From positions 1 to 17,312 of IMG/VR virus record IMGVR_UViG_2563366888_000002: 17,312 nucleotides of DNA; one strand, given 5' to 3'. The notes under the pieces were generated by a model, which saw only the letters and a list, made by a program, of their open reading frames with translations, did no database searches and was not told the origin of the DNA. A program made the translations under genes and the position numbers. Positions 1 through 14,987 of the stretch are shown here, one piece after another; the stretch's first letter is position 1, and every line of letters starts with the position of its first letter. This stretch comes from a virus. Taxonomy: Duplodnaviria > Heunggongvirae > Uroviricota > Caudoviricetes.

Positions 1-93
1 GCAGAAAAAGCTTATTATGCTTCCATCGGAAACGATGATCTGGCAGCCTGAGTTCACAGATAAAACACTCTCCAGGAAACCCGGGGCGGTTCA
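1..93 (+). mobile_element. IS3-family insertion sequence, right-end fragment (last 16 codons of transposase OrfB plus terminal inverted repeat); IS629/IS1203-like
   Basis: Frame 1 of 1..51 translates [16 protein letters not shown]-stop, which I recognise as an IS3-family OrfB C-terminus. Bases 37..93 are the exact reverse complement of 17254..17312. The element ends ...CCCGGGGCGGTTCA at 93 (TG...CA-type terminus). Family assignment is from memory of IS ends, not a search. Confidence 0.7.
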
Positions 94-1223
94 CACAGCC
101 GGTGTTTATGGATCTCGCCAAAAAAGGTGTGGTAGCAGATTTGATTGGCGCAGGCGCAATCATCAGAACCGCGTTCTGCGGCCCATGCTTTGGCGCAGGC
201 GCAATCATCAGAACCGCGTTCTGCGGCCCATGCTTTGGCGCGGGCGATACGCCAATCAACAACGGTTTGAGTATTCGCCACACCACGCGTAACTTCCCGA
301 ACCGCGAAGGCTCTAAGCCAGCTAATGGGCAGATGTCAGCGGTGGCGTTGATGGACGCTCGTTCTATCGCTGCGACTGCGGCAAACGGTGGCTATTTAAC
401 CTCTGCCAGCGAACTTGATTGCTGGGACAACGTGCCGGAGTACGCCTTCGATGTAACGCCGTATAAAAACCGTGTTTATCAGGGCTTTGTGAAAGGGGCA
501 ACTCAGCAACCGCTGATTTACGGGCCGAACATTAAAGACTGGCCGGAATTGGGTGCGCTGACTGACAATATCGTCCTGAAAGTGTGCTCGAAGATCCTCG
601 ACGAAGTGACCACCACCGACGAACTGATTCCTTCCGGTGAAACCTCTTCTTATCGTTCAAATCCGATTGGTCTGGCGGAGTTTACCCTGTCTCGCCGCGA
701 TCCCGGTTATGTTAGCAGAAGTAAAGCGACTGCTGAGCTGGAAAATCAGCGTCTGGCGGGGAATGTCAGCGAGCTGACAGAGGTGTTTGCGCGCATTAAG
801 CAGATTGCTGGTCAGGAGCATATTGATCCGCTGCAAACTGAAATTGGCAGCATGGTCTATGCGGTGAAACCAGGCGATGGTTCTGCGCGTGAACAGGCGG
901 CGAGCTGCCAGCGTGTGATTGGCGGTCTGGCGAATATTGCCGAGGAGTACGCGACTAAACGCTATCGTTCTAACGTCATCAACTGGGGGATGTTACCGCT
1001 GCAAATGGCGGAAGTACCAACCTTTGAAGTGGGGGATTACATTTACATCCCTGGCATTAAAGCGGCGCTGGATAATCCGGGTACGACGTTTAAAGGTTAT
1101 GTGATCCATGAAGATGCGCCGGTAACGGAAATTACGCTCTATATGGAAAGTCTGACTGCTGAAGAGCGCGAGATTATCAAGGCGGGTAGTTTGATTAACT
1201 TCAATAAAAACCGTCAGATGTAA
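94..1223 (+). pseudogene. ybhJ: ybhJ-like aconitase-family hydratase, 3' portion only (5' end removed by the IS; carries an internal 45-bp duplication)
   Basis: Open frame continuous from 94 to TAA at 1221-1223. Translation contains the aconitase-type CGPC Fe-S ligand motif and a C-terminal swivel-domain-like segment (SAREQAA...[12 protein letters not shown]). Position upstream of ybhC and attB-lambda matches the K-12 order ybhJ-ybhC-att. The frame runs into IS sequence with an in-frame stop at 36-38. Confidence 0.7.
147..236. repeat. Perfect 45-bp direct tandem duplication (2 copies) inside ybhJ
   Basis: 147..191 and 192..236 are identical (GGCGCAGGCGCAATCATCAGAACCGCGTTCTGCGGCCCATGCTTT). 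The next bases, GGCGCGGGCG, resemble the repeat start (microhomology). In frame it duplicates [15 protein letters not shown]. Confidence 0.95.
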
Positions 1224-1238
1224 AAAGCGCCATGTGAA

Positions 1239-1347
<109 letters not shown>

Positions 1348-1363
1348 AAATAGTTAATTGCTC

Positions 1364-2647
1364 TTACTTCTTCGCCTCTGCAACCACTTTACTACCCACG
1401 CCGCGGTTATTGTATTCCCACATGCGGTTGTAGTTAGTGTCATTCAGATTGCGCTGTATTTCGTCGTTATCATCTACGCTGCCGGTATTACCCGCAAACG
1501 GACGATTAGAGATCACCGCATCGGCCCACGGTTTAGCCGTGTTAAAACCTTCGTTGATGGCGCTATCACGGATCACCACCTGACCGTTGGTATTGGCATC
1601 AACATCCAGCGAGCGGCCCAGTTGCGCCACACCATCACCGAAAGCATTGAAACGGCTGTTTACGGCGAGGAAACCGTAGTAAATGTTGGACAGCGTAGCC
1701 GGTGCAAACACATACGCTTCTTGCTGAGTACGTGAGTTCACCACGCGGAATTCGGTGTTATCGAACACCACTGCGCCGCGACCAGAAACGATATCCACAT
1801 CCCCTTCAATGTAGCTGTTGGTCACCAGCGTACGCGGCTGACGATTCGTTTCCAGACGGTTCTGCACACCGCTGTTGGTGACAAAGAAGGTGTTCTGACG
1901 ACCGAGAATGTTAACGTTGTTAATCTGTACCTGGTCACCATCAGTACGCAGTGCCACCGCCGGATGGTTACCTGCATCTACGCTATCGCCCAGCGTGTTT
2001 TCGATGGTCAGATTTTGCAGTTGCAGGCCATTGTTTTGTGACCAGAAGACCGCAGAGCAGAGAACACCGATACTGTCGCTGCGTTTGCTCTGGCAGCTAT
2101 CGTACATATACCACGCTGGTTTACCTGGCATATATTTGCCGCGCGGGTTGACGTCGTGACGCCAGTCGGCAGGGCTCATGCCACCATCAAGGGAAAGCCC
2201 AATCTTCACATCAATCGGTTTTTCACCTGTACCGTACAGAGTAATTCCACCCGGAGCGGCAGGGACATATACCGTTCCCTGATACTCACCAGGCATCACG
2301 GCAATATACTGGCGCTTGTTGGTACGCTTGATAATTGCCGCATCTACCGCCGCCTGAATCGTGGTATGCGTTACACCTTGAGTGCCCGCCGGGCCGACAA
2401 CAAAGTCAGGTTGCGCAGGCAGGGTAATCGGGGAAGGATTCCACGCTGCAGCACCTGGTGTCAGGGATGCAAAATAGTGTTGAGCATCGAAATTCTGCGC
2501 TTCTTTTGCCGACAGAATCGGGCGAGAAGAGGTACCAGGCGCGGTTTGATCAGAAGGACGTTGATCGGGCGGGGTTGAGCTACAGGCGGTCAGCGTCACG
2601 CCAAAAGCCAATGCCAGCGCCAGACGGGAAACTGAAAATGTGTTCAC
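1364..2647 (-). CDS. ybhC: YbhC-like outer-membrane lipoprotein, pectinesterase family
   Basis: 427-aa ORF. N-terminal signal peptide with lipobox (LTAC). Sequence recognised as YbhC. Lies immediately beside the lambda attachment core. Confidence 0.85.
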   Translation of the reverse strand: MNTFSVSRLALALAFGVTLTACSSTPPDQRPSDQTAPGTSSRPILSAKEAQNFDAQHYFASLTPGAAAWNPSPITLPAQPDFVVGPAGTQGVTHTTIQAAVDAAIIKRTNKRQYIAVMPGEYQGTVYVPAAPGGITLYGTGEKPIDVKIGLSLDGGMSPADWRHDVNPRGKYMPGKPAWYMYDSCQSKRSDSIGVLCSAVFWSQNNGLQLQNLTIENTLGDSVDAGNHPAVALRTDGDQVQINNVNILGRQNTFFVTNSGVQNRLETNRQPRTLVTNSYIEGDVDIVSGRGAVVFDNTEFRVVNSRTQQEAYVFAPATLSNIYYGFLAVNSRFNAFGDGVAQLGRSLDVDANTNGQVVIRDSAINEGFNTAKPWADAVISNRPFAGNTGSVDDNDEIQRNLNDTNYNRMWEYNNRGVGSKVVAEAKK

Positions 2648-2693
2648 AGGTTGCTCCGGGCTATGAAATAGAAAAATGAATCCGTTGAAGCCT

Positions 2694-2785
2694 GCTTTTT
2701 TATACTAAGTTGGCATTATAAAAAAGCATTGCTTATCAATTTGTTGCAACGAACAGGTCACTATCAGTCAAAATAAAATCATTAT
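2694..2785. other. Prophage attL: lambda 15-bp core GCTTTTTTATACTAA (2694..2708) plus P' arm with arm-type Int sites
   Basis: Exact lambda core sequence. Downstream arm contains AGGTCACTAT / CAGTCAAAAT / AAATCATTAT repeats (lambda P'1-P'3 pattern). Bacterial ybhC sequence on the left, int on the right. Confidence 0.9.
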
Positions 2786-3852
2786 TTGATTTCAATTTTG
2801 TCCCACTCCCTGCCTCTGTCATCACGATACTGTGATGCCATGGTGTCCGACTTATGCCCGAGAAGATGTTGAGCAAACTTATCGCTTATCTGCTTCTCAT
2901 AGAGTCTTGCAGACAAACTGCGCAACTCGTGAAAGGTAGGCGGATCCCCTTCGAAGGAAAGACCTGATGCTTTTCGTGCGCGCATAAAATACCTTGATAC
3001 TGTGCCGGATGAAAGCGGTTCGCGACGAGTAGATGCAATTATGGTTTCTCCGCCAAGAATCTCTTTGCATTTATCAAGTGTTTCCTTCATTGATATTCCG
3101 AGAGCATCAACATGCAATGCTGTTGGGATGGCAATTTTTACGCCTGTTTTGCTTTGCTCGACATAAAGATATCCATCTACGATATCAGACCACTTCATTT
3201 CGCATAAATCACCAACTCGTTGCCCGGTAACAACAGCCAGTTCCATTGCAAGTCTGAGCCAACATGGTGATGATTCTGCTGCTTGATAAATTTTCAGGTA
3301 TTCGTCAGCCGTAAGTCTTGATCTCCTTACCTCTGATTTTGCTGCGCGAGTGGCAGCGACAGGGTTTGTTGTTATATGGCCTTCAGCTATTGCCTCTCGG
3401 AATGCATCGCTCAGTGTTGATCTGATTAACTTGGCTGACGCCGCCTTGCCCTCGTCTATGTATCCATTGAGCATTGCCGCAATTTCTTTTGTGGTGATGT
3501 CTTCAAGTGGAGCATCAGGCAGACCCCTCCTTATTGCTTTAATTTTGCTCATGTAATTTATGAGTGTCTTCTGCTTGATTCCTCTGCTGGCCAGGATTTT
3601 TTCGTAGCGATCAAGCCATGAATGTAACGTAACGGAATTATCACTGTTGATTCTCGCTGTCAGAGGCTTGTGTTTGTGTCCTGAAAATAACTCAATGTTG
3701 GCCTGTATAGCTTCAGTGATTGCGATTCGCCTGTCTCGGCCTAATCCAAACTCTTTACCCGTCCTTGGGTCCCTGTAGCAGTAATATCCATTGTTTCTTA
3801 TATAAAGGTTAGGGGGTAAATCCCGGCGCTCATGACTTCGCCTTCTTCCCAT
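2782..3852 (-). CDS. int: Lambda-type integrase (tyrosine recombinase)
   Basis: 356-aa ORF. Translation recognised as lambda Int essentially end to end (MGRRRSHERRDLPPNLYIRNNGYY...HLLGHKSDTMASQYRDDRGREWDKIEIK). Confidence 0.95.
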   Translation of the reverse strand: MGRRRSHERRDLPPNLYIRNNGYYCYRDPRTGKEFGLGRDRRIAITEAIQANIELFSGHKHKPLTARINSDNSVTLHSWLDRYEKILASRGIKQKTLINYMSKIKAIRRGLPDAPLEDITTKEIAAMLNGYIDEGKAASAKLIRSTLSDAFREAIAEGHITTNPVAATRAAKSEVRRSRLTADEYLKIYQAAESSPCWLRLAMELAVVTGQRVGDLCEMKWSDIVDGYLYVEQSKTGVKIAIPTALHVDALGISMKETLDKCKEILGGETIIASTRREPLSSGTVSRYFMRARKASGLSFEGDPPTFHELRSLSARLYEKQISDKFAQHLLGHKSDTMASQYRDDRGREWDKIEIK

Positions 3853-4048
3853 TTCTGATCCTCTTCAAAAGGCTACCTGTTACTGGTCGATTTAAGTCAA
3901 CCTTTACCGCTGATTCGTGGAACAGATATTCTCTTCCATCCTTAACCGGAGGAGGGAATATCCTGCATTCGCGCACCCATCGACGAATTGTTTCAAGGCT
4001 TCTTGGGCGTCGCTGGCGAGCGTTCCACTCCTGAAGTGTCAAGTACAT
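3830..4048 (-). CDS. xis: Excisionase Xis
   Basis: 72-aa ORF (MYLTLQEWNARQRRPRSLETIRRWVRE...) recognised as lambda Xis. Overlaps the int start as in lambda. GGAG 8 nt upstream of ATG. Confidence 0.95.
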   Translation of the reverse strand: MYLTLQEWNARQRRPRSLETIRRWVRECRIFPPPVKDGREYLFHESAVKVDLNRPVTGSLLKRIRNGKKAKS

Positions 4049-4071
4049 CGCAAAGTCTCCGCAATTACACG

Positions 4072-4096
4072 CAAGAAAAAACCGCCATCAGGCGGC
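4072..4096 (-). terminator. Putative intrinsic terminator-like hairpin (CCGCC-ATCA-GGCGG followed by a U7 tract on the minus-strand RNA)
   Basis: GC stem at 4082-4086/4091-4095 with A-run 4075-4081 on the plus strand (U-run on the leftward transcript). Located about 25 nt upstream of the xis start; function unverified. Confidence 0.35.
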
Positions 4097-4292
4097 TTGG
4101 TGTTCTTTCAGTTCTTCAATTCGAATATTGGTTACGTCTGCATGTGCTATCTGCGCCCACAGCATCCAGTGGTTATAGCAGTCGCTGATGTTCTCGGCTT
4201 CGATAACTCTGTTGAATGGTTCTCCATTCCATTCACCTGTAACTCGGAAGTGCATTTATCATCGCCATAAAACAAAACTCGCCGTAGCGAGT

Positions 4293-4324
4293 TCAGATAA
4301 AAGAAAACCCGCACTCGGCGGGTT
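4293..4324 (-). terminator. Putative intrinsic terminator on the leftward transcript
   Basis: 7-bp stem AACCCGC/GCGGGTT (4306-4312/4318-4324) with 5-nt loop, followed on the minus strand by UUCUUUUAU. Sits where I judge the sequence to diverge from lambda. Confidence 0.4.
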
Positions 4325-4603
4325 CGCATTCGTTCAAATTGCGTTTACTTCTTGGCGTTCTGTTCATCCATATCGATATACCATGGGTTGCTTCCCTTGG
4401 GCATGTTTAACGACTGCTCGCGATAGTATCTGATGCGCTCCATGAAATACTCGCGTGAGTGCTCAGGTTGCTCTCATGATACCTGCTCAGTGATAACAGG
4501 TATGTTAAGGCGCTCTCTGTACTCCATGCCTGATGCTGCAAGGTCAACGTTTACCTTGTTCTGTTTTTCTTTCGATTTCTCGGCGATGTTATGCCTGACA
4601 TTG

Positions 4604-4888
4604 TCAACCCGCCTCCTTCTGAACATAACGGTTATAAATCAGTCCCTGAGGGCCATAAGGAAGCGGGATGTGCAACTCCTCTGGTTCAGAAACTATCCAT
4701 TCCCCGGCCATCTCCGCTGGAGAGGTAATGATAAGTTGTTTGCTAATAAAAGGACCACTCCTCTCAACAACAAGCTTACCATCTTCATTAATAAAAGCTT
4801 GGATGTCAGGTGTGCTTCCACACTTGGTGATGCAGCGTTTGAACATTTTGTGTCCCCCCATTTTATGGACGGGGTAATTATAACACAT
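4604..4888 (-). CDS. Hypothetical protein (94 aa; possibly about 80 aa from an internal ATG preceded by a G-rich SD-like run)
   Basis: ORF from track; occupies the ea8.5 position but is not recognisably Ea8.5. No SD before the first ATG; GGGGGG 7 nt before the third Met codon. The antisense plus-strand ORF 4433..4891 looks low-complexity. Confidence 0.45.
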   Translation of the reverse strand: MCYNYPVHKMGGHKMFKRCITKCGSTPDIQAFINEDGKLVVERSGPFISKQLIITSPAEMAGEWIVSEPEELHIPLPYGPQGLIYNRYVQKEAG

Positions 4889-4972
4889 TGAAATATAGTA
4901 ATATTTGACGTAGATTTCTTTTGATCTATAAGCGATTTTTTAATGCTTTTAAGTTATAAATACTTGTTTTCA

Positions 4973-5548
4973 TCACCCATCTTGCTGCGGTGCTACTATT
5001 GAAAAGTACTCACACCCTTTAGCCCAAATAGTTTTGATAGTTGTCCAACTGACTGGAACCTTGATTTCGATTCTTCCGCTGCCGTCACAAGTTTCGCAAT
5101 CATCATCACCAAAGCATTCCGGGCAGCTTATAAACGTAGTTTCTGAAAATTCACCGGATAGCACACCCTTAGCGCCGTTCTCAGCGGTTAGTTTCTTCGG
5201 CACTATAACCCAACCATCCGGAGTTACCGGAGAATTGCCATTTATATCGAAGTTTGGCTCTGCGTCCTGAACCAGGAGGATGTAACCATTCTTGGCAGTA
5301 TCAAGTTCTAACGCCTCGGTGACGGTACCGAAATAGCGATTACCTAAATCCGCATCACAAGTGCTTACATCAATGGAAACCTCCATGCCTTCGATTAATT
5401 CTGGCAAGTTGTAAGTTTGGCTTACAGGTTCTGCTCCCAGTGATGCCAGTGCAATTCGTGCCAGTTCCATTTGTTCGCCACGAGTAAGCCCGTTTTCAAG
5501 CGGATTTTTAATGAACAATTCAATACGTTCTTTGGTAATAGTGGTCAT
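4973..5548 (-). CDS. Hypothetical protein with C-terminal zinc-ribbon (CPEC...CETCDGSG, DnaJ-like CxxCxGxG motif)
   Basis: 191-aa ORF. AAGGA 7 nt upstream of ATG. Only 10 nt downstream of the preceding gene's stop (operon-like packing). Cys-pair motifs read directly from the translation. Confidence 0.6.
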   Translation of the reverse strand: MTTITKERIELFIKNPLENGLTRGEQMELARIALASLGAEPVSQTYNLPELIEGMEVSIDVSTCDADLGNRYFGTVTEALELDTAKNGYILLVQDAEPNFDINGNSPVTPDGWVIVPKKLTAENGAKGVLSGEFSETTFISCPECFGDDDCETCDGSGRIEIKVPVSWTTIKTIWAKGCEYFSIVAPQQDG

Positions 5549-5558
5549 TTGTTAGTCC

Positions 5559-6314
5559 TTAAACTGCTAGTTGCAATTGCATTTCAAAGCGGTCGCGTTG
5601 TTCACAATACGCAAGAGAACCAGGGCTATTGTGTGCCTCAATCCGTTCTACCATTAATGCTGCGCGTGTCTCTTTACTTGCAGGTGCATAAGCCCCAGAC
5701 CAGGCTTTATCAATACCGATGTTTCGAGCGACGTTCGTACTATCTGCGCTGGCTAAGGGTAATTTTGTGAATATCAGCGGATTTAACATGCGCAATCCAT
5801 GTAGTTTCGTAACCAGCTGACCATGCCCATCAACAATGTGACGAATCAGGTCTTTCATTCTGGCTACCGCAAGAGTTGGGCGCTTTACGTCATAGTCGCC
5901 ACAACTACCGATAGCCACTCGCGGAAACTCATTGCACAAATGAATAAATCGCTCGTCACTTTCATTCATGTGCCACACTGGAACGCCAGCTAGTTTTCCG
6001 TGAGGCCACTCATTCAGAAGCGCATCATTTTCCTCCTCTCCGCCATCAATAACATCCGGGATAATGGCAAAATCGAATCTTGGGTGATTCTTCCAGCGAG
6101 CAACAAACTCGTAGTAATCGCTCCAGTCGATTTTGTTTTTGCCAGCTGCTTTCCAGGCGGTGAATGCACCGTTGTCCAGCGCGAACGACTGACAGTATTC
6201 AGCCGCGAGATTGATCTGGCCTGAATGCGCAAAACTGATAAACGCATGTCGCCCTTTCCATGCTCTCATTGCGCACGTATCAGGAGTAATAGGCCCACCG
6301 TGGTAGTGAATCAT
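5559..6314 (-). CDS. TGT-fold protein; candidate DpdA-like 7-deazaguanine DNA transglycosylase (251 aa from the SD-supported ATG)
   Basis: Start chosen at 6314: AAGGAG 6 nt upstream, and ATG overlaps the Ea22-like stop (TGAGATG). The track ORF extends to 6356 but overlaps the upstream gene. Motifs align to tRNA-guanine transglycosylase by eye: FALDNGAF ~ TDSGGFQ, IIPDVID ~ MIFDEC, ASADSTNVARNIG ~ FDCVMPTRNARNG. No C-terminal zinc-binding CxCxxC...H subdomain. Confidence 0.55.
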   Translation of the reverse strand: MIHYHGGPITPDTCAMRAWKGRHAFISFAHSGQINLAAEYCQSFALDNGAFTAWKAAGKNKIDWSDYYEFVARWKNHPRFDFAIIPDVIDGGEEENDALLNEWPHGKLAGVPVWHMNESDERFIHLCNEFPRVAIGSCGDYDVKRPTLAVARMKDLIRHIVDGHGQLVTKLHGLRMLNPLIFTKLPLASADSTNVARNIGIDKAWSGAYAPASKETRAALMVERIEAHNSPGSLAYCEQRDRFEMQLQLAV

Positions 6315-6315
6315 C

Positions 6316-6723
6316 TCACTCTCCTTTGATGCGAATGCCAGTAGCGCGGATTGCATCGATGACTTCAGAAACTTTGTATGCCATTACCGTTTGGTAATCA
6401 TCGTGAAAATCTGTTCGATGAAGCATGCTGCTACGTTCCGGGAGCAGTATTTCCCGCGCTTCCAGTTCTGCAATGCGCTTTTTTGCTGCTTCCAGTTCAT
6501 CCAGTAATTCCAGCACGGTAGCCGGATTAGCCTTGGCAACAAAATCCCGGACTGGCTTACAATCAATCTCCGCAATGGGTTGATACGATGTGTAGCCATG
6601 CTGTCTTGTATAACTACCGTGACGAATAACGAAAAAATCACCATTTATTTTTTTAGCCTGCCACTTATCTTCACCGGCTTTCTCTGCCGCTTCACGCAGT
6701 GCCTGAGAGTTAATTTCGCTCAC
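6316..6723 (-). CDS. Ea22/Ead-family protein (chimeric: lambda-like N-terminus and last residues, divergent middle)
   Basis: 135-aa ORF. N-terminus MSEINSQALREAAEKA... and C-terminal ...GIRIKGE are characteristic of the Ea22 family. Shorter than lambda Ea22 (about 182 aa). Confidence 0.7.
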   Translation of the reverse strand: MSEINSQALREAAEKAGEDKWQAKKINGDFFVIRHGSYTRQHGYTSYQPIAEIDCKPVRDFVAKANPATVLELLDELEAAKKRIAELEAREILLPERSSMLHRTDFHDDYQTVMAYKVSEVIDAIRATGIRIKGE

Positions 6724-6941
6724 GTCGAACCTCTCTGTTTACTGATAAGCTCCAGATCTTGCTGGCAACTGGCACAAGTCCGACAACCCTGAACGGCCAG
6801 TCGTCTTCGTTCATCTATCGGATCGCCACACTCACAACAATGAGTGGCAGATATAGCCTGGTGGTTCAGGCGGCGCATTTTTATTGCTGTGTTGCGCTGT
6901 AATTCTTCAATTTCTGATGCTGAATCAATTATGTCTGCCAT
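6720..6941 (-). CDS. TraR/DksA-family C4 zinc-finger protein (lambda orf73-like)
   Basis: 73-aa ORF with CCECGDPIDERRR...CRTCASC (two Cys pairs, DksA/TraR pattern). Overlaps the Ea22-like start by 4 nt. Confidence 0.8.
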   Translation of the reverse strand: MADIIDSASEIEELQRNTAIKMRRLNHQAISATHCCECGDPIDERRRLAVQGCRTCASCQQDLELISKQRGST

Positions 6942-7039
6942 CTTTCATTAATCCCTGAATTGTTGGTTAATACGCTTGAGGGTGAATGCGAATAATAAAA
7001 AAGGAGCCTGTAGCTCCCTGATGATTTTGCTTTTCATGT

Positions 7040-7321
7040 TCACCGTTCCTTAAAGACGCCGTTCAACATGCCGATCGCCAGGCTTAAATGAGTCGGTGTG
7101 AATCCCATCAGCGTTACCGTTTCGCGGTGCTTCTTTAGTACGCTACGGCAAATGTCATCGACGTTTTTATCCGGAAACTGCTGTCTGGCTTTTTTGATTT
7201 CAGAATTAGCCTGACGGGCAATGCTGCGAAGGGCGTTTTCTTGCTGAGGTGTCATTGAACAAGCCCCATGTCGGCAAGCATAAGCACACAGAATATGAAG
7301 CCCGCTGCCAGAAAAATGCAT
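7040..7321 (-). CDS. Small early-left hypothetical protein (likely translated from the internal ATG at 7255, giving 71 aa)
   Basis: ORF from track. The internal ATG at 7255 overlaps (ATGA) the stop of an upstream 27-codon hydrophobic mini-ORF (7252..7335), suggesting translational coupling. Lambda-like by memory. Confidence 0.5.
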   Translation of the reverse strand: MHFSGSGLHILCAYACRHGACSMTPQQENALRSIARQANSEIKKARQQFPDKNVDDICRSVLKKHRETVTLMGFTPTHLSLAIGMLNGVFKER

Positions 7322-7331
7322 TCAGTGGTTG

Positions 7332-7523
7332 TCATACCTGGTCTCTCTCATCTGCTTCTGCTTTCGCCACCATCATTTCCAGCTTTTGTGAAAGGGATGC
7401 GGCTAACGTATGAAATTCTTCGTCTGTTTCTACTGATATTGGCACAAACCTGACTCCAATTTGAGCGAGGCTATGTGCCATCTCGATACTCGTTCTTAAC
7501 TCAACGGGAGATGCTTTGTGCAT
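7332..7523 (-). CDS. Lambda orf63-like small protein
   Basis: 63-aa ORF. Overlaps the next upstream ORF by 28 nt, exactly as the lambda orf63/orf60a pair does. Confidence 0.55.
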   Translation of the reverse strand: MHKASPVELRTSIEMAHSLAQIGVRFVPISVETDEEFHTLAASLSQKLEMMVAKAEADERDQV

Positions 7524-7678
7524 ACAGCTCCCCGTTTATTATTTATCTCCTCAGCCAGCCGCTGTGCTTTCAGGGGATTTCTGATAACAGAAAGGCCGGG
7601 AAATACCCAGCCTCGCTTTGTAATGGAGTAGACGAAAGTGATCGCGCCCACCCGGATATTATCGTGAGGATGCGTCAT
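7496..7678 (-). CDS. Lambda orf60a-like small protein (60 aa from the ATG that overlaps the exo stop)
   Basis: Track ORF 7496..7684. The start at 7678 gives 60 aa and a 4-nt ATGA overlap with the exo stop, matching lambda organisation. Confidence 0.5.
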
Positions 7679-8355
7679 CGCCATTGCTCCCCAAATACAA
7701 AACCAATTTCAGCCAGTGCCTCGTCCATTTTTTCGATGAACTCCGGCACCATCTCGTCAAAACTCGCCATGTACTTTTCATCCCGCTCAACCACGACATA
7801 ATGCAGGCCTTCACGCTTCATACGCGGGTCATAGTTGGCAAAGTACCAGGCATCTTTTCGCGTCACCCACATGCTGTACTGCACCTGGGCCATGTAAGCC
7901 GACTTTATGGCCTCGAAACCACCGAGCCGGAACTTCATGAAATCCCGGGAGGTAAACGGGCATTTCAGCTCAAGGCCATTGCCGTCACTGCATAAACCAT
8001 CGGGAGAGCAGGCGGTACGCATACTTTCGTCGCGATAGATGATCGGGGATTCAGTAACATTCACGCCGGAAGTGAATTCAAACAGAGTTCTGGCGTCGTT
8101 CTCGTACTGTTTTCCCCATGCCAGCGCCTTAGCATTAACTTCCGGAGCCACACCGGTGCAAACCTCAGCCAGCAGGGTGTGGAAGTAGGACATTTTCATG
8201 TCAGGCCACTTTTTTCCGGAGCGGGGTTTTGCTATCACATTGTGAACTTCTGAAGCGGTGATGACGCCGAGCCGTAATTTGTGCCACGCATCATCCCCCT
8301 GTTCGACAGCTCTCACGTCGATTCCGGTACGCTGCAGGATAATGTCCGGTGTCAT
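7675..8355 (-). CDS. exo: Exonuclease (Red-alpha)
   Basis: 226-aa ORF recognised as lambda Exo ([54 protein letters not shown]...). Confidence 0.95.
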
Positions 8356-9137
8356 GCAGCCACCTTCTGCTCAGTGGCTTTCTGTTTCAGGAATCCAAGA
8401 GCTTTCACTGCTTCGGCCTGTGTCAGTTCTGACGATGCGCGAATGTCGCGGCGAAATATCTGGGAACAGAGCGGCAATAAGTCGTCATCCCATGTTTTAT
8501 CCAGGGCAATCAGCAGAGTGTTAATCTCCTGCATGGTTTCATCGTTAACCGGAGTGATGTCGCGTTCCGGCTGACGTTCTGCAGTGTATGCGGTATTTTC
8601 GACAATGCGCTCGGCTTCATCCTTGTCATAGATACCCGCAAATCCGAAGGCCAGACGGGCACACTGAATCATGGCTTTATGCCGTAACATCCGTTTGGGA
8701 TGCGACTGCCACGGCCCCGTAATTTCTCTGCCTTCGCGGGTTTTGAATGGTTCGCGGCGGCATTCATCCATCCACTCGGTAACGCAGATCGGATGATTAC
8801 GGTCCTTGCGGTAAATCCGGCATGTACAGGATTCATTGTCCTGCTCAAAGTCCATGCCATCAAACTGCTGGTTTTCATTGATGATGCGGGACCAGCCATC
8901 AACGCCCACCACCGGAACGATGCCATTCTGCTTATCAGGAAAGGTGTAAATTTCTTTCGTCCACGGATTAAGGCCGTACTGGTTGGCAACGATCAGTAAT
9001 GCGATGAACTGCGCATCGCTGGCATCACCTTTAAATGCCGTCTGGCGAAGAGTGGTGATCAGTTCCTGTGGGTCGACAGAATCCATGCCGACACGTTCAG
9101 CCAGCTTCCCAGCCAGCGTTGCGAGTGCTGTACTCAT
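8352..9137 (-). CDS. bet: Recombination protein Bet (Red-beta single-strand annealing protein)
   Basis: 261-aa ORF recognised as lambda Bet ([59 protein letters not shown]...). Confidence 0.95.
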
Positions 9138-9142
9138 CCGTT

Positions 9143-9439
9143 TTATACCTCTGAATCAATATCAACCTGGTGGTGAGCAATGGTTTCAACCATGTACCGG
9201 ATGTGTTCTGCCATGCGCTCCTGAAACTCAACATCGTCATCAAACGCACGGGTAATGGCTTTTTTGCTGGCCCCGTGGCGTTGCAAATGATCGATGCATA
9301 GCGATTCAAACAGGTGCTGGGGCAGGCCTTTTTCCATGTCGTCTGCCAGTTCTGCCTCTTTCTCTTCACGGGCGATCTGCTGGTAGTGACGCGCCCAGCT
9401 CTGAGCCTCAAGACGATCCTGAATGTAATAAGCGTTCAT
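9143..9439 (-). CDS. gam: Gam, RecBCD inhibitor (98-aa short form; the longer N-terminal extension is not in frame here)
   Basis: Translation [21 protein letters not shown]...[10 protein letters not shown] recognised as lambda GamS. In-frame stop at 9494-9496 upstream; the lambda-like extension peptide [15 protein letters not shown] is encoded in the +1 frame. Confidence 0.9.
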
Positions 9440-9514
9440 GGCTGAACTCCTGAAAATGGCTGTGAAAATATCGCCCGCGAAATGCCAGGCTGATTAGGAA
9501 AACAGGAAAGGGGA

Positions 9515-9721
9515 TTAGCGATTCAGGCCGTTACCGCGTCCGTCGAGAAAAACTTCCACGAGCAAATCACGGGTATAAGTGCGCTCGATGCCGCGATGCA
9601 GATAAAGCCGTCCGCGTAAATTAGCTGATGCAGTCCAGGTACCATCTTTGTGTTTGACCAGCATTCCTGGCATGACCGCACCTCGATTAACGGTCTGCGT
9701 TCCGTAATGTTGATGAACCAT
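9515..9721 (-). CDS. Small hypothetical protein in the kil position (68 aa from the SD-supported ATG); frame stays open upstream to a TTG at 9925
   Basis: AGGAG 5 nt before the ATG at 9721. The 136-codon track ORF starts on TTG with no SD. Non-lambda sequence. Confidence 0.45.
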
Positions 9722-9943
9722 AAAAACTCCTGCCCGTAAGCTGGGCTGCTGAACATATAGAGACTTCTGCGCGTATTCAGGCGGTGGATGGCCGCCGGTT
9801 GTCATAACTAAGTCGCCTCGTTGAAGCGACTGAGGTATGAAGTGTTGAGTTGATTTCAGCTGGTCACACCGACGTTCACGCGTCCGCTTCACCCCTCGCA
9901 CTCCCCGAAGCCTGCTGAAATTCAAACTGCGGATCTAAGCGGT

Positions 9944-10072
9944 CATCGCAACGGTGAAACAGGTGGTTACCGTATCGTTGTGTCGTTGCGATGAATTTAT
10001 TTAAAACTATAGTTGTTTTATCGTCAACAACAAAAGTTGTTTTGTCGGTTGTTTTAAATATAACTGGTTGTA
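9944..10072 (-). promoter_or_regulatory. Candidate OL/pL region and early leftward leader: 10-bp inverted repeat with 30-bp spacer plus GTTGTT/AACAAC operator-like half-sites
   Basis: CATCGCAACG (9944-9953) pairs with CGTTGCGATG (9984-9993). Half-sites AGTTGTTTT (10011-10019), CAACAAC (10025-10031), AGTTGTTTT (10035-10043), GGTTGTTTT (10048-10056), CTGGTTGTA (10064-10072). The same half-site recurs in the cI-cro intergenic region. No promoter hexamers confidently placed. Confidence 0.4.
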
Positions 10073-10161
10073 TTTAGGATGGATTTATTTTGTGACTTGC
10101 ATCGCATAGCGATAACTGAAGTGAGGTGTGGTGGTTTTTTGGACGGTATGAGTTATGAGGG

Positions 10162-10193
10162 GGAGGAAAAGAAAACCCGGCGCGGTTGCCGGG
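10162..10193 (-). terminator. Intrinsic terminator downstream of the lipoprotein gene (end of the cI-side operon)
   Basis: Stem CCCGGC/GCCGGG (10176-10181/10188-10193) with 6-nt loop, followed on the minus-strand RNA by UUUUCUUUUCC. 9 nt after the lipoprotein stop. Confidence 0.6.
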
Positions 10194-10201
10194 TATGATT
10201 A

Positions 10202-10582
10202 TCAGTCAGCCCAACCTGATTTCGAGTTTATTTGGGTTTCTGACATTGTGTATTTCTTAATCGTGTCATCGTTAAAAAGAATAGTAAGTTCTTTTTTCGT
10301 ACCGTTCGTTCCATTATGGAATAATCCATAGAATGGAATAAAAGTGGTGCCATTAACTTTTACTTTTGCAAAGGCGTACTTCCAGATCTCGTTTCCACTG
10401 TCAGTATATGAAACAGCATCAGGAGAACCAAAGTAAGATTTAACCTCATTCTTGGTTGTTTTACCTTCCTGAAGTTTAGACTGGACACTAATTTCAGTTT
10501 CATTTTTGAGTTGCTGGTTGCCTGAAGAAGCACACCCAGCCAATACAGATGCCATCATGGCAGCGATTAGGATTTTTCTCAT
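10202..10582 (-). CDS. BamE/SmpA-OmlA-like small lipoprotein; moron in the rex position downstream of cI
   Basis: 126-aa ORF. Signal peptide with lipobox LAGC. The EGKTTKNEVKSYFGSPD...WKY pattern resembles the BamE fold motif. Same strand as cI and followed by a terminator. Confidence 0.7.
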   Translation of the reverse strand: MRKILIAAMMASVLAGCASSGNQQLKNETEISVQSKLQEGKTTKNEVKSYFGSPDAVSYTDSGNEIWKYAFAKVKVNGTTFIPFYGLFHNGTNGTKKELTILFNDDTIKKYTMSETQINSKSGWAD

Positions 10583-10811
10583 TTTATGTTTCCATTCATT
10601 ATAATCAGAAACATCTTAACATAATGATTCGAAATAAAAACCGCTACGAGATAGGGGGACATTTTGCTGACAGTAGCAACAAATCTCAGCTAACAACGAG
10701 AATATTTACTGAAATATGCAAACAGATTTGGCGTTCTTATAGAGAATTTAGTGCAATATCTAATCCGAGTGGTATAAACCTTAACCTTCGCTCCCTTAAG
10801 TCGTAGATAAA

Positions 10812-11501
10812 TTAACCATGCTTCCTGTACGTCTGCGGCATGCTTCCAATGACCTTACCGAATATGAACACCCGGTTCATCTCGTCTTTCTCGATCGGGT
10901 CCCACGGCGAGTAGCTCTTGTTATCAGAGATAACCAGCAGCTTATCCTTCATCATTTGAAGACGTTTTACATGGGCAGTGTCGTCGTACAGAAACGCATA
11001 GATGCCATCACCGTCGAAAGATTTAACAGTGATATCAACGAACAGCAGGTCACCTGGTTCGATCGTCCCTGACATGCTGTCACCTCGCACGTTAATGATG
11101 CGGATATTTTCCGCCTTCCTGCCATCGAACATGTGACGAGCATCGTCAAACGAGTACTCAACCGAGCGTAGAACTTCTACAAACTCACGGTTGATTACAC
11201 CTGGCCCGGCACTGACTTCTATATCAAGAACGTCAATTTTGAAGTATTTGGAATGGCTGACAGTTGATTGTATTGGTTGCACTGTACTGTCTGACATATT
11301 TCCAACGCCAGAAGATAACCATTCTGCGCGCACACCCAAAGCGTTCGCGATCTCCACGATTTTAGTTGTTTGGTTAGCTTTCCCTGTTTCGATTTTCTGA
11401 ATAGCAGCCTGGCTAACCCCGACCAAATCCCCAAGCGCCTTTTGTGTAAGGCCTCGCGCTAATCTGGCTTCTTTAAGTCTTTCTGAGAGTGTTGTTTTCA
11501 T
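10812..11501 (-). CDS. cI: CI-type prophage repressor (N-terminal HTH_XRE, C-terminal S24 LexA-like peptidase domain)
   Basis: 229-aa ORF. HTH segment LTQKALGDLVGVSQAAIQKIETGK. Candidate Ala-Gly autocleavage site (VSAGPG). Ser/Lys dyad motifs GDSM and HVKRL. No SD before the ATG, consistent with a leaderless pRM-type transcript. Not lambda immunity. Confidence 0.85.
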   Translation of the reverse strand: MKTTLSERLKEARLARGLTQKALGDLVGVSQAAIQKIETGKANQTTKIVEIANALGVRAEWLSSGVGNMSDSTVQPIQSTVSHSKYFKIDVLDIEVSAGPGVINREFVEVLRSVEYSFDDARHMFDGRKAENIRIINVRGDSMSGTIEPGDLLFVDITVKSFDGDGIYAFLYDDTAHVKRLQMMKDKLLVISDNKSYSPWDPIEKDEMNRVFIFGKVIGSMPQTYRKHG

Positions 11502-11605
11502 AGATCAAATGTACAACCAAGGTTTTATTTCATCAAACGAAAATGGTTGTTGACTAAAAACAACCATAGTTTTAATCTTGATTCGGATTAACCACGGAGG
11601 TTGTT
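11502..11605. promoter_or_regulatory. Divergent promoter/operator region (OR; pR-like promoter for cro, leaderless pRM-like start for cI)
   Basis: Rightward TTGACT (11550-11555), 17-bp spacer, TAATCT (11573-11578), then GGAGG before the cro ATG. Inverted repeat ATGGTTGTT (11542-11550) / AACAACCAT (11559-11567) overlaps the -35. Confidence 0.6.
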
Positions 11606-11836
11606 ATGAACCCAGCAATCAAAACAGCGATCAATATCGTTGGTTCACAAAAGAAACTAGGCGATGCCTGCGAAGTTTCACAGCAGGCCGTCTATAAGTG
11701 GCTTCACAACAAAGCAAAGGTATCCCCTGAACATGTCGGCAGCATTGTTACGGCTACTGGTGGAGTTGTGAAGGCATACCAGATTCGCCCGGATCTTCCG
11801 AAGTTGTTTCCACACACCGAAAAGAACGCAGCTTAA
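11606..11836 (+). CDS. Cro-like HTH regulator (YdaS-like)
   Basis: 76-aa ORF divergent from cI with a strong SD. HTH-like segment KKLGDACEVSQQAVYKWLHN. Family call from memory. Confidence 0.7.
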   Translation: MNPAIKTAINIVGSQKKLGDACEVSQQAVYKWLHNKAKVSPEHVGSIVTATGGVVKAYQIRPDLPKLFPHTEKNAA

Positions 11837-11905
11837 ATTTCCATTTCACGCTCTTTAACAATAAGCAATCAACTTAACAGTCAATTCAAACTAAAGGAGT
11901 CAATT

Positions 11906-12445
11906 ATGCAACCACTTACATACCAACAGACTAGCGGATTTATTCCGACTGCGGTGATAAATCGTTCTCAAACAAAACAAGCTCCAGGCCACGAAAAAAT
12001 CCGTGATGCCGTCCGCGCCTGGTCGGCTGTAGATAATCAGGATGTCGTTGCCGCACTCATTGTGAATGAGTATCGGGAGCAGGGCGACGGCACCATCGAT
12101 TTCCCTGATGATGTCAGCCGTGCACGCCAGAAGCTGTTCCGCTTCCTCGATAACAAATTCGATTCTGAAAAATACCGAAATAACGTGCGTGAACTGACCC
12201 CGGCAATTCTGGCGGTACTACCGCTGGAATATCGCGGTTACCTGGTTGAGCAGGATAGCTTCATGACTCGGTTGGCTGAAATGGAAAAGGAACTCAGTGA
12301 GGCAAAACAGGCTGTCATTCTCAACGCACCACGCCACCAGAAACTGAAGGAAATGAGTGAAGGTATTGTGTCGATGTTTCGTGTGGACCCGGATCTGGCT
12401 GGTCCATTAATGGCGATGGTGACCACCATGCTGGGGGCAATATGA
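11906..12445 (+). CDS. CII-position regulatory protein (YdaT/CII-like), 179 aa
   Basis: AAGGAG SD. Located between cro-like and O with an ATGA overlap at the 3' end. Assignment is by position, not recognised sequence. Confidence 0.45.
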   Translation: MQPLTYQQTSGFIPTAVINRSQTKQAPGHEKIRDAVRAWSAVDNQDVVAALIVNEYREQGDGTIDFPDDVSRARQKLFRFLDNKFDSEKYRNNVRELTPAILAVLPLEYRGYLVEQDSFMTRLAEMEKELSEAKQAVILNAPRHQKLKEMSEGIVSMFRVDPDLAGPLMAMVTTMLGAI

Positions 12446-12531
12446 CAGGTTCAGAAATGGCGAAAGTCGGTCTGCGGGAACAGAACCGACTTTCAGGTGC
12501 AAATCGTAACACACTCATTGCGGGAGGAATT

Positions 12532-13461
12532 ATGGCAAACACTGCTGAGATATTCAATTTTCCAGTGCCGGATGCGGCACAAAAGGAGCCGCGCGTGGCA
12601 GATCTCGATGATGGTTATACGCGCATTGCAAATGAGTTGCTGGAAGCTGTGATGCTGGCCGGATTAACACAGCACCAGCTTCTGGTCTTCCTGGCTGTCA
12701 TGCGCAAAACATATGGCTTTAATAAAAAACTGGATTGGGTGAGCAACGAGCAACTTTCCGAGTTGACCGGGATATTGCCGCACAAGTGTTCTGCTGCAAA
12801 AAGCGTTCTGGTAAAGCGTGGGATTCTTATTCAGAGCGGGCGGAATATCGGCATTAATAATGTGGTCAGTGAATGGTCAACATTACCCGAATCAGGTAAG
12901 AAAAATAAAGTTTACCTGAAAGAGGTAAATTTACCTGAATCAGGTAAGAAAAGTTTACCCAAATCAGGTAAAGGCGTTTACCCGAATCAGGTAAACACAA
13001 AAGACAAACTAACAAAAGACAATATAAAACCTTTTTCGTCCGAGAATTCTGGCGAATCCTCTGACCAACCAGAAAACGATCTTCCTGTGGAGAAACCAGA
13101 TGCTGCAATTCAGAGCGGCAGCAGGTGGGGGACAGCAGAAGACCTGACCGCCGCAGAGTGGATGTTTGACATGGTGAAGACCATCGCGCCATCAGCCAGA
13201 AAACCGAATTTTGCAGGGTGGGCTAACGATATCCGCCTGATGCGTGAACGTGACGGACGTAACCACCGCGACATGTGCGTGCTGTTCCGCTGGGCATGCC
13301 AGGACAACTTCTGGTCCGGTAACGTGCTAAGTCCGGCCAAACTCCGCGACAAGTGGACCCAACTCGAAATCAACCGTAACAAGCAACAGGCTGGCGTGAC
13401 AGCCGGAAAATCAAAACTCGACCTGACAAACACTGACTGGATTTATGGGGTGGATTTATGA
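12532..13461 (+). CDS. O: Replication initiator O (non-lambda N-terminal iteron-binding domain, lambda-like C-terminal P-interaction domain)
   Basis: Conserved O motif ADLDDGY...LLEA...RKTYGFNK...SNEQLSELTG and lambda-like C-terminus (...WIYGVDL). Start set at 12532 (GGGAGG 5 nt upstream; aligns with the lambda O N-terminus). The track ORF begins at 12442. Confidence 0.85.
   Translation: MANTAEIFNFPVPDAAQKEPRVADLDDGYTRIANELLEAVMLAGLTQHQLLVFLAVMRKTYGFNKKLDWVSNEQLSELTGILPHKCSAAKSVLVKRGILIQSGRNIGINNVVSEWSTLPESGKKNKVYLKEVNLPESGKKSLPKSGKGVYPNQVNTKDKLTKDNIKPFSSENSGESSDQPENDLPVEKPDAAIQSGSRWGTAEDLTAAEWMFDMVKTIAPSARKPNFAGWANDIRLMRERDGRNHRDMCVLFRWACQDNFWSGNVLSPAKLRDKWTQLEINRNKQQAGVTAGKSKLDLTNTDWIYGVDL
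12883..12995. repeat. Replication origin iterons inside O (five about 18-bp direct repeats), followed by an A/T-rich segment to about 13040
   Basis: TTACCCGAATCAGGTAAG (12883), TTTACCTGAAAGAGGTAAA (12911), TTACCTGAATCAGGTAAG (12931), TTACCCAAATCAGGTAAA (12954), TTACCCGAATCAGGTAAA (12978), then ACAAAAGACAAACTAACAAAAGACAATATAAAA. Classic lambdoid ori architecture. Confidence 0.8.
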
Positions 13462-14159
13462 AAAACATCGCCGCACAGATGGTTAACTTTGACCGTGAGC
13501 AGATGCGCCGGATCGCCAACAACATGCCGGAACAGTACGACGAAAAGCCGCAGGTACAGCAGGTAGCGCGGATCATCAACGGTGTGTTCAGCCAGTTACT
13601 GGCAACTTTCCCGGCGAGCCTGGCTAACCGGGACCAGAACGAACTGAACGAAATCCGCCGCCAGTGGGTTCTGGCTTTCCGGGAAAACGGGATCACCACA
13701 ATGGAACAGGTTAACGCAGGAATGCGCGTAGCCCGTCGGCAGAATCGACCATTCCTGCCATCACCCGGGCAGTTTGTCGCCTGGTGCCGGGAAGAAGCAT
13801 CCGTTACCGCCGGACTGCCAAACGCCAGCGAGCTGGTTGATATGGTTTACGAGTATTGCCGGAAGCGTGGCCTGTATCCGGACGCAGAGTCTTATCCATG
13901 GAAATCAAACGCGCACTACTGGTTGGTTACCAACCTGTACCAGAACATGCGGGCCAATGCGCTGACTGACGCGGAATTACGGCGTAAAGCTGCCGATGAG
14001 CTGACCTGTATGACCGCGCGAATTAACCGTGGTGAGGCGATACCTGAACCAGTAAAACAACTTCCTGTCATGGGCGGTAGGCCTCTAAATCGTGCACAGG
14101 CTCTGGCGAAGATCGCAGAAATCAAAGCGAAGTTCGGACTGAAAGGAGCAACTGTATGA
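13458..14159 (+). CDS. P: Replication protein P (DnaB helicase loader)
   Basis: 233-aa ORF recognised as lambda P almost residue for residue (MKNIAAQMVNFDREQMRRIANNMPEQYDEKPQVQQVA...). Confidence 0.95.
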   Translation: MKNIAAQMVNFDREQMRRIANNMPEQYDEKPQVQQVARIINGVFSQLLATFPASLANRDQNELNEIRRQWVLAFRENGITTMEQVNAGMRVARRQNRPFLPSPGQFVAWCREEASVTAGLPNASELVDMVYEYCRKRGLYPDAESYPWKSNAHYWLVTNLYQNMRANALTDAELRRKAADELTCMTARINRGEAIPEPVKQLPVMGGRPLNRAQALAKIAEIKAKFGLKGATV

Positions 14160-14329
14160 CGGGCAAAGAGGCAATTATTCATTATCTGGAGACGCACAAG
14201 AGCTTCTGTGCGCCGGACGTTGCTGCGACAACAGGTGTGACATTAACCAGCATAAATCAGGCTGCGGCAAAAATGGCGCGGGCAGGAATCCTGGTCATTG
14301 ATGGTAAGGTCTGGCGAACGTTTGTTTAA
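14156..14329 (+). pseudogene. ren: ren N-terminal fragment (57 codons; lambda-like for about 50 residues, then divergent and terminated)
   Basis: ATG overlaps the P stop. Translation MTGKEAIIHYLETHKSFCAPDVAATTGVTLTSINQAAAKMARAGILVIDGKVWRTFV-stop matches lambda Ren (96 aa) only in its N-terminal part. Not in the ORF track because under 60 aa. Confidence 0.6.
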
Positions 14330-14475
14330 CGGTTAGCTACTCAGGATGATAGGGCGGGGCAAGTGAGTATGAAGCGGATTTTCAGGAATGCCATCAGAGT
14401 TTGGAAATAAAGTGGGTTTTCTAGTGGCAAGAGACTTGATAATATTTAGTTCTTTAAATCCAAGGAGATAGGGTT

Positions 14476-14970
14476 ATGAGAAAATTTATTATAGCCTTTG
14501 TCATAAGTGCCTCGTTTACTGCAAATGCTGGTGTAGAGAAGTTAGGGTCGTGGATAACAAAGTCTGAGATAAATAAAATGACTGACCAGACTGACTTTGT
14601 GGCTCTTAATTTATCACCAGATTCATATAACAAAGCAGGTACTGATCGTGCAACTTCACTGGTGTTGCGTTGTAGTGATAACAAAACAGATGCCTATTTA
14701 TCATTCAATGATTATATGGGTTCGGACAACCCAAGAATTACAGTGCGGTTAGATGGCGGAAAGCCGGTCAAGAGTGCTTGGGGAGGTGGGGAAGGCGGTG
14801 ATTCTGCATTTGCTCCACAACCAATACAATTTATAAAGACCTTGGCTAAGCATAAAAAAGCTATTTTTGGGTTTGAACCTTATGGATCAACTATGCAAGT
14901 AGTTGAGTTTGACTTGTCTGAGATTGATAAGGTTGTGGAAAAAATTTCACAGTCTTGCAATTGGAAATGA
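14476..14970 (+). CDS. Secreted hypothetical protein (signal peptide, two Cys), low-GC moron
   Basis: 164-aa ORF. N-terminal MRKFIIAFVISASFTANA signal-peptide pattern. GGAG-type SD. Visibly AT-rich relative to neighbours. Followed by a terminator. Confidence 0.65.
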   Translation: MRKFIIAFVISASFTANAGVEKLGSWITKSEINKMTDQTDFVALNLSPDSYNKAGTDRATSLVLRCSDNKTDAYLSFNDYMGSDNPRITVRLDGGKPVKSAWGGGEGGDSAFAPQPIQFIKTLAKHKKAIFGFEPYGSTMQVVEFDLSEIDKVVEKISQSCNWK

Positions 14971-14987
14971 CAAAAAAATTTCATATG

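Follow-up and report, generated by a model that had tools for sequence, protein, structure and literature searches.

Phage DpdA1 and bacterial DpdA are among the described systems closest to the gene analysed here. Deletion of dpdA from Escherichia phage CAjan removed 2'-deoxy-7-cyano-7-deazaguanosine (dPreQ0) from the phage DNA (PMC6884629), and the DNA of Pseudomonas phage Iggy carries dPreQ0 at GA sites (PMC10484667). The DpdA of Salmonella Montevideo (bDpdA) needs the ATPase DpdB, and its product is turned into dADG (2'-deoxy-7-amido-7-deazaguanosine) by DpdC; in this enzyme D95 is the general acid/base, F99 has a gating role, base recognition falls to D130 and H181, and the nucleophile is D256 (PMC10164549). 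Hutinet et al. listed in 2019 (Supplementary Data 1) the proteins of phages SPN3UB, BTP1, SfI, HK106, SEN1 and 7-11 as DpdA, all from phages without a G+ (archaeosine) or preQ0 synthesis gene (PMC6884629). For a 'third group' of 76 phages they proposed that these 'could rely on preQ0 synthesized by the host', and for the singleton DpdAs, which form separate clusters, they raised a possible functional divergence (PMC6884629). Here we analysed a dpdA-like gene in a 17,312-nucleotide stretch of a Caudoviricetes record (IMG/VR IMGVR_UViG_2563366888_000002, positions 1 to 17,312; the window). The gene is as follows.

5559..6314, minus strand: coding sequence of the DpdA-like protein (tRNA-guanine transglycosylase superfamily), 251 amino acids, intact, ATG at 6314-6312 and TAA at 5561-5559

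The product is identical to RefSeq WP_000582234.1, which is labelled 'hypothetical protein'. We conclude that within the tRNA-guanine transglycosylase (TGT) superfamily it probably belongs to the phage DpdA branch, as a compact member that has no zinc site, and that it is a candidate DpdA-type DNA-guanine transglycosylase that would act early in lytic growth and swap selected guanines for a host-supplied 7-deazaguanine by double displacement. The protein belongs to the 'DpdA-only' singleton group of gamma-proteobacterial phages, because no FolE, QueD, QueE or QueC is encoded in the window or in the approximately 30 kb of prophage inspected. Its identity to the catalogued proteins was as follows.

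Salmonella phage SPN3UB, YP_007011024: 92%
Salmonella virus BTP1, SIU02687: 92%
Enterobacteria phage SfI, YP_009147480: 68%
Enterobacteria phage HK106, YP_007151699: 36%
Salmonella phage SEN1, YP_009217891: 38%
Salmonella phage 7-11, YP_004782407: 36%

The gene shares with this group the early-left position in lambdoid and P22-like genomes and the lack of preQ0 genes. Nothing of substance differs; the present copy is carried by a lambda-like prophage of E. coli at the lambda attachment site and has no name in the RefSeq bacterial annotation. The identification is not new, since DpdA candidates that are near-identical orthologues appeared in print in 2019, and a TGT-type label is already attached in PHROGs and in phage RefSeq records. 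The DpdA idea put forward in a first-pass annotation of the window had likewise been in print before: the SPN3UB, BTP1, SfI and HK106 proteins were already catalogued as 'DpdA only' (PMC6884629).

Homology to phage DpdA1 and the barrel fold

A search of PHROGs gave a single strong match, phrog_887 'queuine tRNA-ribosyltransferase' (E=2.9e-103). The same family matched the DpdA of CAjan (E=8e-96) and that of Iggy (E=5e-86), and E. coli TGT did not match it. A family profile was constructed from 150 diverse homologues and aligned by hhalign to the DpdA1 family profile. The probability was 98.9% (E=1.4e-17) over 174 columns, with residues 22-199 of the DpdA-like protein paired with residues 35-214 of CAjan DpdA; homology to phage DpdA1 is therefore secure. 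In addition, tblastn against Iggy DpdA gave E=1e-6.

These results supported the family assignment of the first-pass annotation, which had named the gene a DpdA-type candidate after aligning its motifs with those of bacterial TGT by eye. That alignment itself was not reproduced as a significant sequence match: hhalign against an E. coli-like TGT alignment gave a probability below 1%, the alignment being shallow (number of effective sequences, Neff, 1.7) and validated DpdA1 proteins failing it too. The TGT link of the DpdA-like protein rests on fold comparison and DpdA1 homology. The profile and structure comparison against TGT and DpdA that the annotation had suggested gave no PF01702 or PADLOC DpdA match; it gave matches to PHROG 887 and the DpdA1 profile and a predicted TIM barrel with TGT-like neighbours. 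For a relative, the singleton DpdA of Pantoea phage MED16, HHpred was reported to give 99.18% probability to the Thermotoga TGT 2ASH (PMC8306585).

The DpdA-like protein resembles DpdA1 of CAjan, Enterobacteria phage 9g and Iggy in its LD(N/S)GAF, (W/F)H, K(L/V)HG and S(A/C)DS(T/S) motifs, in its membership of PHROG 887, in having no zinc-binding Cys cluster and in being an apparently early-expressed gene among DNA-metabolism genes. It differs in that it is only ~26% identical over ~160 residues and 55 residues shorter, has its own N-terminus with an HxHG motif, and has no alignable C-terminal third. Moreover, DpdA1 genes adjoin folE-queD-queC-queE, whereas the DpdA-like gene has no such neighbours.

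The fold was predicted with AlphaFold2 from a 54-sequence alignment. The model (mean predicted local distance difference test score 81.4, predicted template modelling score 0.83) showed the eight alternating strands and helices of a (beta/alpha)8 TIM barrel. The nearest solved structures were TGT-like enzymes, with the following ranks and scores.

Rank 1: Cap10 of the type IV cyclic-oligonucleotide-based antiphage signalling system (CBASS) (9ntn_B), 14.9
Rank 2: bacterial DNA preQ0 insertase DpdA (7ui4_A), 14.3
Rank 3: bacterial TGT (3unt_A), 12.8
Rank 6: archaeosine TGT, 12.5
Rank 11: QTRT2, 11.5

Foldseek against BFVD returned 27 matches at E<=1e-3, of which all named ones were phage queuine/queuosine tRNA-ribosyltransferases; generic barrels appeared only beyond E 1e-3.

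Cap10, which heads this list, is a host defence component that acts with Cap9 and a CD-NTase bearing an N-terminal 7-amido-7-deazaguanine (bioRxiv 10.1101/2025.04.06.647259). A Cap10-like enzyme working on protein-linked 7-deazaguanine could serve a phage as a counter to type IV CBASS or to QatABCD-type defences, which use QueC/TGT homologues. We regard such a role as extremely improbable, as the DpdA-like protein is 9% identical to Cap10 (PDB 9NTN) and its detectable sequence homology is to DpdA1, PADLOC matched it to no defence protein, and no Cap9, CD-NTase or QatC-like neighbour was present here or in any other examined locus. The second-ranked enzyme differs in several features: bDpdA (PDB 7UI4) has 413 residues, a structural Zn2+ site and a 128-residue Ins8, none of which occurs in the DpdA-like protein. 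As to membership of a bacterial Dpd system, there was no PADLOC DpdA match at E<=10, no Zn2+ site, no DpdB or DpdC partner and no dpd cluster, the neighbours being genes of the phage ea region.

Compared with bacterial TGT (PF01702), the DpdA-like protein is short (251 versus 375 amino acids), lacks the zinc subdomain and the N-terminal lid, and presumably acts on DNA rather than tRNA. An RNA-directed transglycosylase, exchanging a base in host or phage tRNA and so altering translation during infection, would agree with the TGT-superfamily fold and with the 'queuine tRNA-ribosyltransferase' label in RefSeq phage records and PHROG 887. However, that label was inherited from remote homology with no assay behind it, and E. 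coli TGT does not match the very family that bears it. The absence of the TGT zinc subdomain and C-terminal parts, the action of the closest characterised relatives (DpdA1) on DNA, the fusion or adjacency of family members to DNA methyltransferases (see below) and the presence of a tgt gene in the host of the window all make a tRNA substrate very unlikely.

Proposed active-site residues and the absent zinc site

The three motifs quoted in the first-pass annotation were located in the intact minus-strand reading frame: FALDNGAF at residues 44-51 (D47), IIPDVID at 84-90 (D87 and D90) and ASADSTNVARNIG at 188-200 (D191). The positions that we consider to form the active site are listed below, with their conservation in the aligned homologues.

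6174..6176, minus strand: codon of D47, LDNGAF motif, end of beta3 (strand 43-47), kept in 146 of 147
6045..6056, minus strand: codons of D87-V-I-D90, beta4-alpha4 loop, candidate base-recognition Asp
5970..5972, minus strand: codon of H115, PVWH motif, end of beta5, kept in 146 of 149 and invariant in the DpdA1 alignment
5799..5801, minus strand: codon of H172, KLHGLR motif, beta7, 19 residues before D191, kept in 137 of 146
5742..5744, minus strand: codon of D191, SADST motif, beta8 (strand 189-192), kept in 129 of 141

D47, H115, H172 and D191 align with identical residues of CAjan and Iggy DpdA; D47 falls on the LDSGAF motif of DpdA1 and D191 on the SCDSS motif (D206 of CAjan DpdA), and H172 is invariant in two of our alignments (A1 and A3). 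In the predicted barrel, these four residues and D87 each lie at or just past the C-terminal end of a strand. We propose D47 as general acid/base, the counterpart of Asp95 in Salmonella DpdA and of Asp102 in Zymomonas mobilis TGT. F51 stands at +4 from D47, as Phe99 does after Asp95 in Salmonella DpdA, which gives a DxGxF pattern at the end of a barrel strand. D191 is the proposed nucleophile and would correspond to Asp256 of bDpdA, Asp280 of TGT and Asp206 of CAjan DpdA. Cap10 contains an H226/D248 residue pair (bioRxiv 10.1101/2025.04.06.647259), and its spacing resembles that of H172 and D191; H172 is a candidate hydrogen-bond partner of the nucleophile. By analogy with H181 of Salmonella DpdA (PMC10164549), H115 may take part in base recognition. 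Between residues 147-209 of CAjan DpdA and the PADLOC DpdA model (positions 200-259) there is a weak match (E=0.0013).

Of the three catalytic Asp claimed in the first-pass annotation, D47 and D191 were conserved, and the second was ambiguous. D87, the residue chosen in the annotation, is kept in 147 of 148 homologues, yet its partner in the DpdA1 alignment is a Ser. The DpdA1 Asp (VLDG) falls on D90, which is kept in only 90 of 150 homologues and is replaced by Gly or Glu in 40% of the family. Either is a candidate equivalent of Asp130 of bDpdA or Asp156 of TGT. A CxCxxC...H zinc site, which the annotation had also reported missing, is indeed absent from the 251-residue protein. The chain ends 60 residues past D191, and C237 is the sole Cys in that segment. 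Since the validated DpdA1 of CAjan and Iggy likewise have no Cys cluster of any kind, the missing zinc site is real and not distinctive.

The conservation of these Asp residues in the family and the DpdA1 profile match show that the motif pattern exceeds a chance resemblance. The near-invariance of D47, D87, H115, H172 and D191 in the 150 homologues argues for a working enzyme. The reaction would most likely proceed in three steps. First, D191, positioned by H172, would attack C1' of the target deoxyguanosine in double-stranded DNA with D47 as general acid, so that guanine leaves and a covalent enzyme-DNA intermediate forms. A 7-deazaguanine base from queuosine synthesis in the host (preQ1, preQ0 or ADG, the precursor of preQ0) would then bind in a pocket lined by D87/D90 and H115. 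Finally, N9 of the incoming base, deprotonated by D47, would resolve the intermediate. The phage would thus bring the transglycosylase alone, and FolE, QueD, QueE and QueC would be supplied by the host. In the ~30 kb inspected of the prophage of strain N10 (from the integrase to the tape-measure gene) there was no folE, queD, queE, queC or queF; therefore, any 7-deazaguanine would come from the host, as the first-pass annotation had supposed. E. coli tgt and queA were seen, and E. coli encodes the remainder of the queuosine pathway.

The family is extensive, with over 7,800 members in a 90%-clustered collection, none of them with a precomputed Pfam domain, and a search of 50%-identity cluster representatives gave 1,574 matches at E<=1e-3. 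Among 5,426 complete E. coli genomes, 303 carry the gene; 188 copies are at least 99% identical and approximately 99 represent an allele of ~68% identity. The annotation pipeline PGAP names all E. coli copies listed 'hypothetical protein'. That label, the accessory-gene mosaic in which the gene lies, with pseudogenes nearby (a theta-like gene and ren), and the inactivity of phiSM DpdA1 expressed in E. coli would fit a passenger gene of the mosaic 'ea' region that is decaying or has no enzymatic role at present. Such a passenger is very improbable, because the open reading frame is intact in the 188 near-identical copies, a related allele occurs in about 99 further genomes, homologues number over 7,800, the catalytic residues are near-invariant down to ~35% identity, and the ribosome-binding site is strong. 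In the phage collection, a 92%-identical copy of this enterobacterial gene occurs in record OR850331.1 (1,719 bp, 'Staphylococcus phage SA 1298 Kay'), which is probably a mislabelled or contaminant sequence.

Substrate and extent of modification

Two gene fusions bear on the substrate. In P0239 (L009:6001-7266), which sits immediately ahead of the replication gene gpA in a P2/186-like prophage, a D12-class Dam DNA methyltransferase forms the N-terminal part and is joined to a DpdA-like part that begins at the equivalent of residue 39, and so is without the first two barrel strands; the shared domain is 46% identical. In P0262 (L008:2840-3847), from a metagenomic phage contig, the N-terminal part is a QueD/PTPS domain and the identity is 40%. 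QueD is the second enzyme of preQ0 synthesis. These fusions therefore tie the family to DNA modification and the 7-deazaguanine pathway. As for unfused homologues, that of Pseudomonas phage Epa33 adjoins a C5-cytosine DNA methylase, that of Vibrio phage K391 lies between helicase and primase with a DNA methyltransferase nearby, and that of Salmonella phage 7-11 is near a ligase and a dNMP kinase. In HK106 and BTP1 the homologue is in the recombination/ea region, and BTP1 shares the ead-then-dpdA order. No conserved partner gene emerged across the compared loci of other phages. The analysis shows the homology to validated DpdA1, the barrel, the conserved residues, the lack of a zinc site and of que genes, and the place in the operon; that the enzyme acts on DNA, which base it inserts and whether protection follows are inferred.

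Published analyses of two singleton-only phages also bear on the question. The DNA of 7-11 contained dADG at 50 per 10^6 nucleotides, ~0.02% of G (PMC6884629), and that of MED16 contained dADG at 354 per 10^6 nucleotides, ~0.13% of G, with almost no dPreQ0 (PMC8306585). We count the presence of dADG in both phages in favour of a DNA-guanine transglycosylase. It may not transfer to this copy, since both phages are lytic and distant: the 7-11 protein is 36% identical, and MED16 DpdA can be placed only through SEN1 (38%), to whose DpdA it is reported to be 55% identical (PMC8306585).

Several observations weigh against DNA-guanine transglycosylation by the DpdA-like protein. The analysed singleton relatives contained dADG only in traces and next to no dPreQ0, several enzymes whose sites include G could still digest MED16 DNA (PMC8306585), and no modification was found in the singleton-only mycobacteriophage Orion, whose host is without the pathway (PMC6884629). 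The literature search found no published test of a lambdoid singleton DpdA. With 55 residues fewer than DpdA1 and no alignment past residue 199, the protein may have other DNA-binding elements than DpdA1. The middle Asp of the active site aligns ambiguously, as described above. Searches were also partly silent: Pfam, NCBIfam and PADLOC gave no match at E<=10, phmmer and three profile searches against PDB sequences gave no relevant match, and Foldseek against PDB did not discriminate, returning generic TIM barrels at E ~2e-3. The missing PF01702 match, which was also noted when Pfam was run on 86 family members, carries little weight, since the validated DpdA1 of CAjan and Iggy fail the same test.

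The same low levels in 7-11 and MED16, and the lack of modification in Orion, would suit a DNA glycosylase or hydrolase that takes out a base by means of the same pocket and puts in no 7-deazaguanine, or an enzyme that puts in something else, with attack on host DNA or erasure of a host mark as possible roles. Such an activity would also agree with the HxHG motif (beta1), a His (beta5) and an Asp (beta8), which recall metal-dependent TIM-barrel hydrolases, and with the possible functional divergence of singleton clusters raised by Hutinet et al. (PMC6884629). Nevertheless, the DxGxF, H...D and SxDS pattern of a transglycosylase active site is retained, the QueD fusion of a family member points to a 7-deazaguanine substrate, and dADG is present in 7-11 and MED16 DNA; we thus consider this activity unlikely.

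For the DNA-guanine transglycosylase, the trace levels in the two analysed relatives suggest that modification is probably sparse and sequence-selective rather than a bulk replacement. Going further, the lambdoid singleton enzymes might write sparse, sequence-specific dADG marks from the host QueC intermediate without a DpdC-type partner, and not for bulk anti-restriction, a proposal that we offer as a long shot. These marks could imitate the 'self' label found in bacterial Dpd restriction-modification systems or have another epigenetic role in temperate Salmonella and E. coli phages. The HxHG motif, which is family-specific and lies on strand beta1, might contribute to an altered specificity.

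If the enzyme is active, one gene would be enough for common E. coli, Shigella and Salmonella temperate phages to introduce 7-deazaguanines into DNA from host queuosine precursors only; these phages include Shiga toxin (Stx)-converting phages and BTP1 of epidemic S. Typhimurium sequence type 313 (ST313). Activity would affect restriction and CRISPR evasion, nanopore- and restriction-based DNA analyses, and sensitivity to host glycosylases directed at modified DNA. The question left by Hutinet et al. (2019) is whether the 'DpdA-only' group modifies DNA, and with what, and the present prophage offers a convenient E. coli system for it.

Prophage setting and expression

The window begins in the host genes ybhJ and ybhC and continues into a lambda-like prophage at the lambda attachment site, in agreement with the lambdoid prophage setting proposed in the first-pass annotation. 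The prophage genes are in the order int, xis, mosaic 'ea' region, exo-bet-gam, kil, a BamE-like gene, a cI-like repressor gene, cro, O and P, and the nin region. The DpdA-like gene is located between xis and exo and points the same way as exo-bet-gam; the leftward early operon (pL) reads N ... gam-bet-exo ... traR-ead-[DpdA-like gene] ... xis-int. The features around its start are as follows.

6316..6723, minus strand: ead/Ea22-like gene (Pfam PF13935, E=2.6e-17), upstream gene of the same pL-driven operon
6321..6325, minus strand: Shine-Dalgarno AGGAG, 6 nt 5' of the ATG (6314), as seen in the sequence itself

An alternative in-frame ATG further upstream, at 6356, would give a longer reading frame. 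The ATG at 6314 is the likely start, because AGGAG is positioned 6 nt upstream and the stop codon of the ead/Ea22-like gene, at 6318-6316, lies just 5' of it. The ribosome-binding site is strong, and its location inside the end of the ead/Ea22-like gene suggests translational coupling to the DpdA-like gene. The ead/Ea22-like gene is context for the DpdA-like gene and no functional partner.

No sigma-70-like site was found on the minus strand between 3800 and 7600, and moron-style expression from an own promoter was rejected for this reason. Given that result and the position and orientation with exo-bet-gam, the DpdA-like gene is probably a delayed-early gene on the pL transcript. From this operon position, the protein would be made early in lytic growth and remain silent in the lysogen. 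Four strong terminator-like hairpins were found on the minus strand, three of them (4079-4098, 4275-4294 and 4305-4325) clustered between the ea region and xis and the fourth (7001-7019) upstream of the TraR/DksA-like gene. Terminator-like sites in the region numbered 11, against 3.8 expected from shuffles, and this excess is consistent with an antitermination-dependent pL transcript.

The directly downstream gene (4973-5548, minus strand) encodes 191 amino acids, belongs to PHROG 60 (unknown function) and carries CPECFGDDDCETCDGSG, a zinc-finger motif of the DnaJ type. Some genomes have it in PGAP as 'molecular chaperone DnaJ', other genomes as a truncated pseudogene. With its DnaJ-like CxxCxGxG finger it was the candidate for a partner supplying a zinc domain in trans, and this possibility was rejected. 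The neighbours of the DpdA-like gene are unrelated in BTP1, HK106, Epa33 and K391, and the 191-residue gene is not conserved beside it in these phages. A DnaJ-finger protein 2 kb from the QueD-fusion homologue shares only the CxxC motif with it.

Other genes of the prophage were noted as follows. A homologue of the DNA polymerase III theta subunit (HolE-like) is located at approximately 4345-4626 (minus strand); matching E. coli genomes have it annotated as a pseudogene, interrupted by an internal stop. A 126-residue gene at 10202-10582 (minus strand), just left of the cI-like repressor gene (10812-11501), is labelled 'outer membrane protein assembly factor BamE' and may be a lysogen-expressed accessory gene. 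In the nin region, genes at 14476-14970 and 16015-16470 (both plus strand) carry the labels 'type VI secretion system-associated protein TagO' and ybcN ('DNA base-flipping protein YbcN'), respectively. Just upstream, the ren gene (approximately 14156-14424) is frameshifted in matching genomes.

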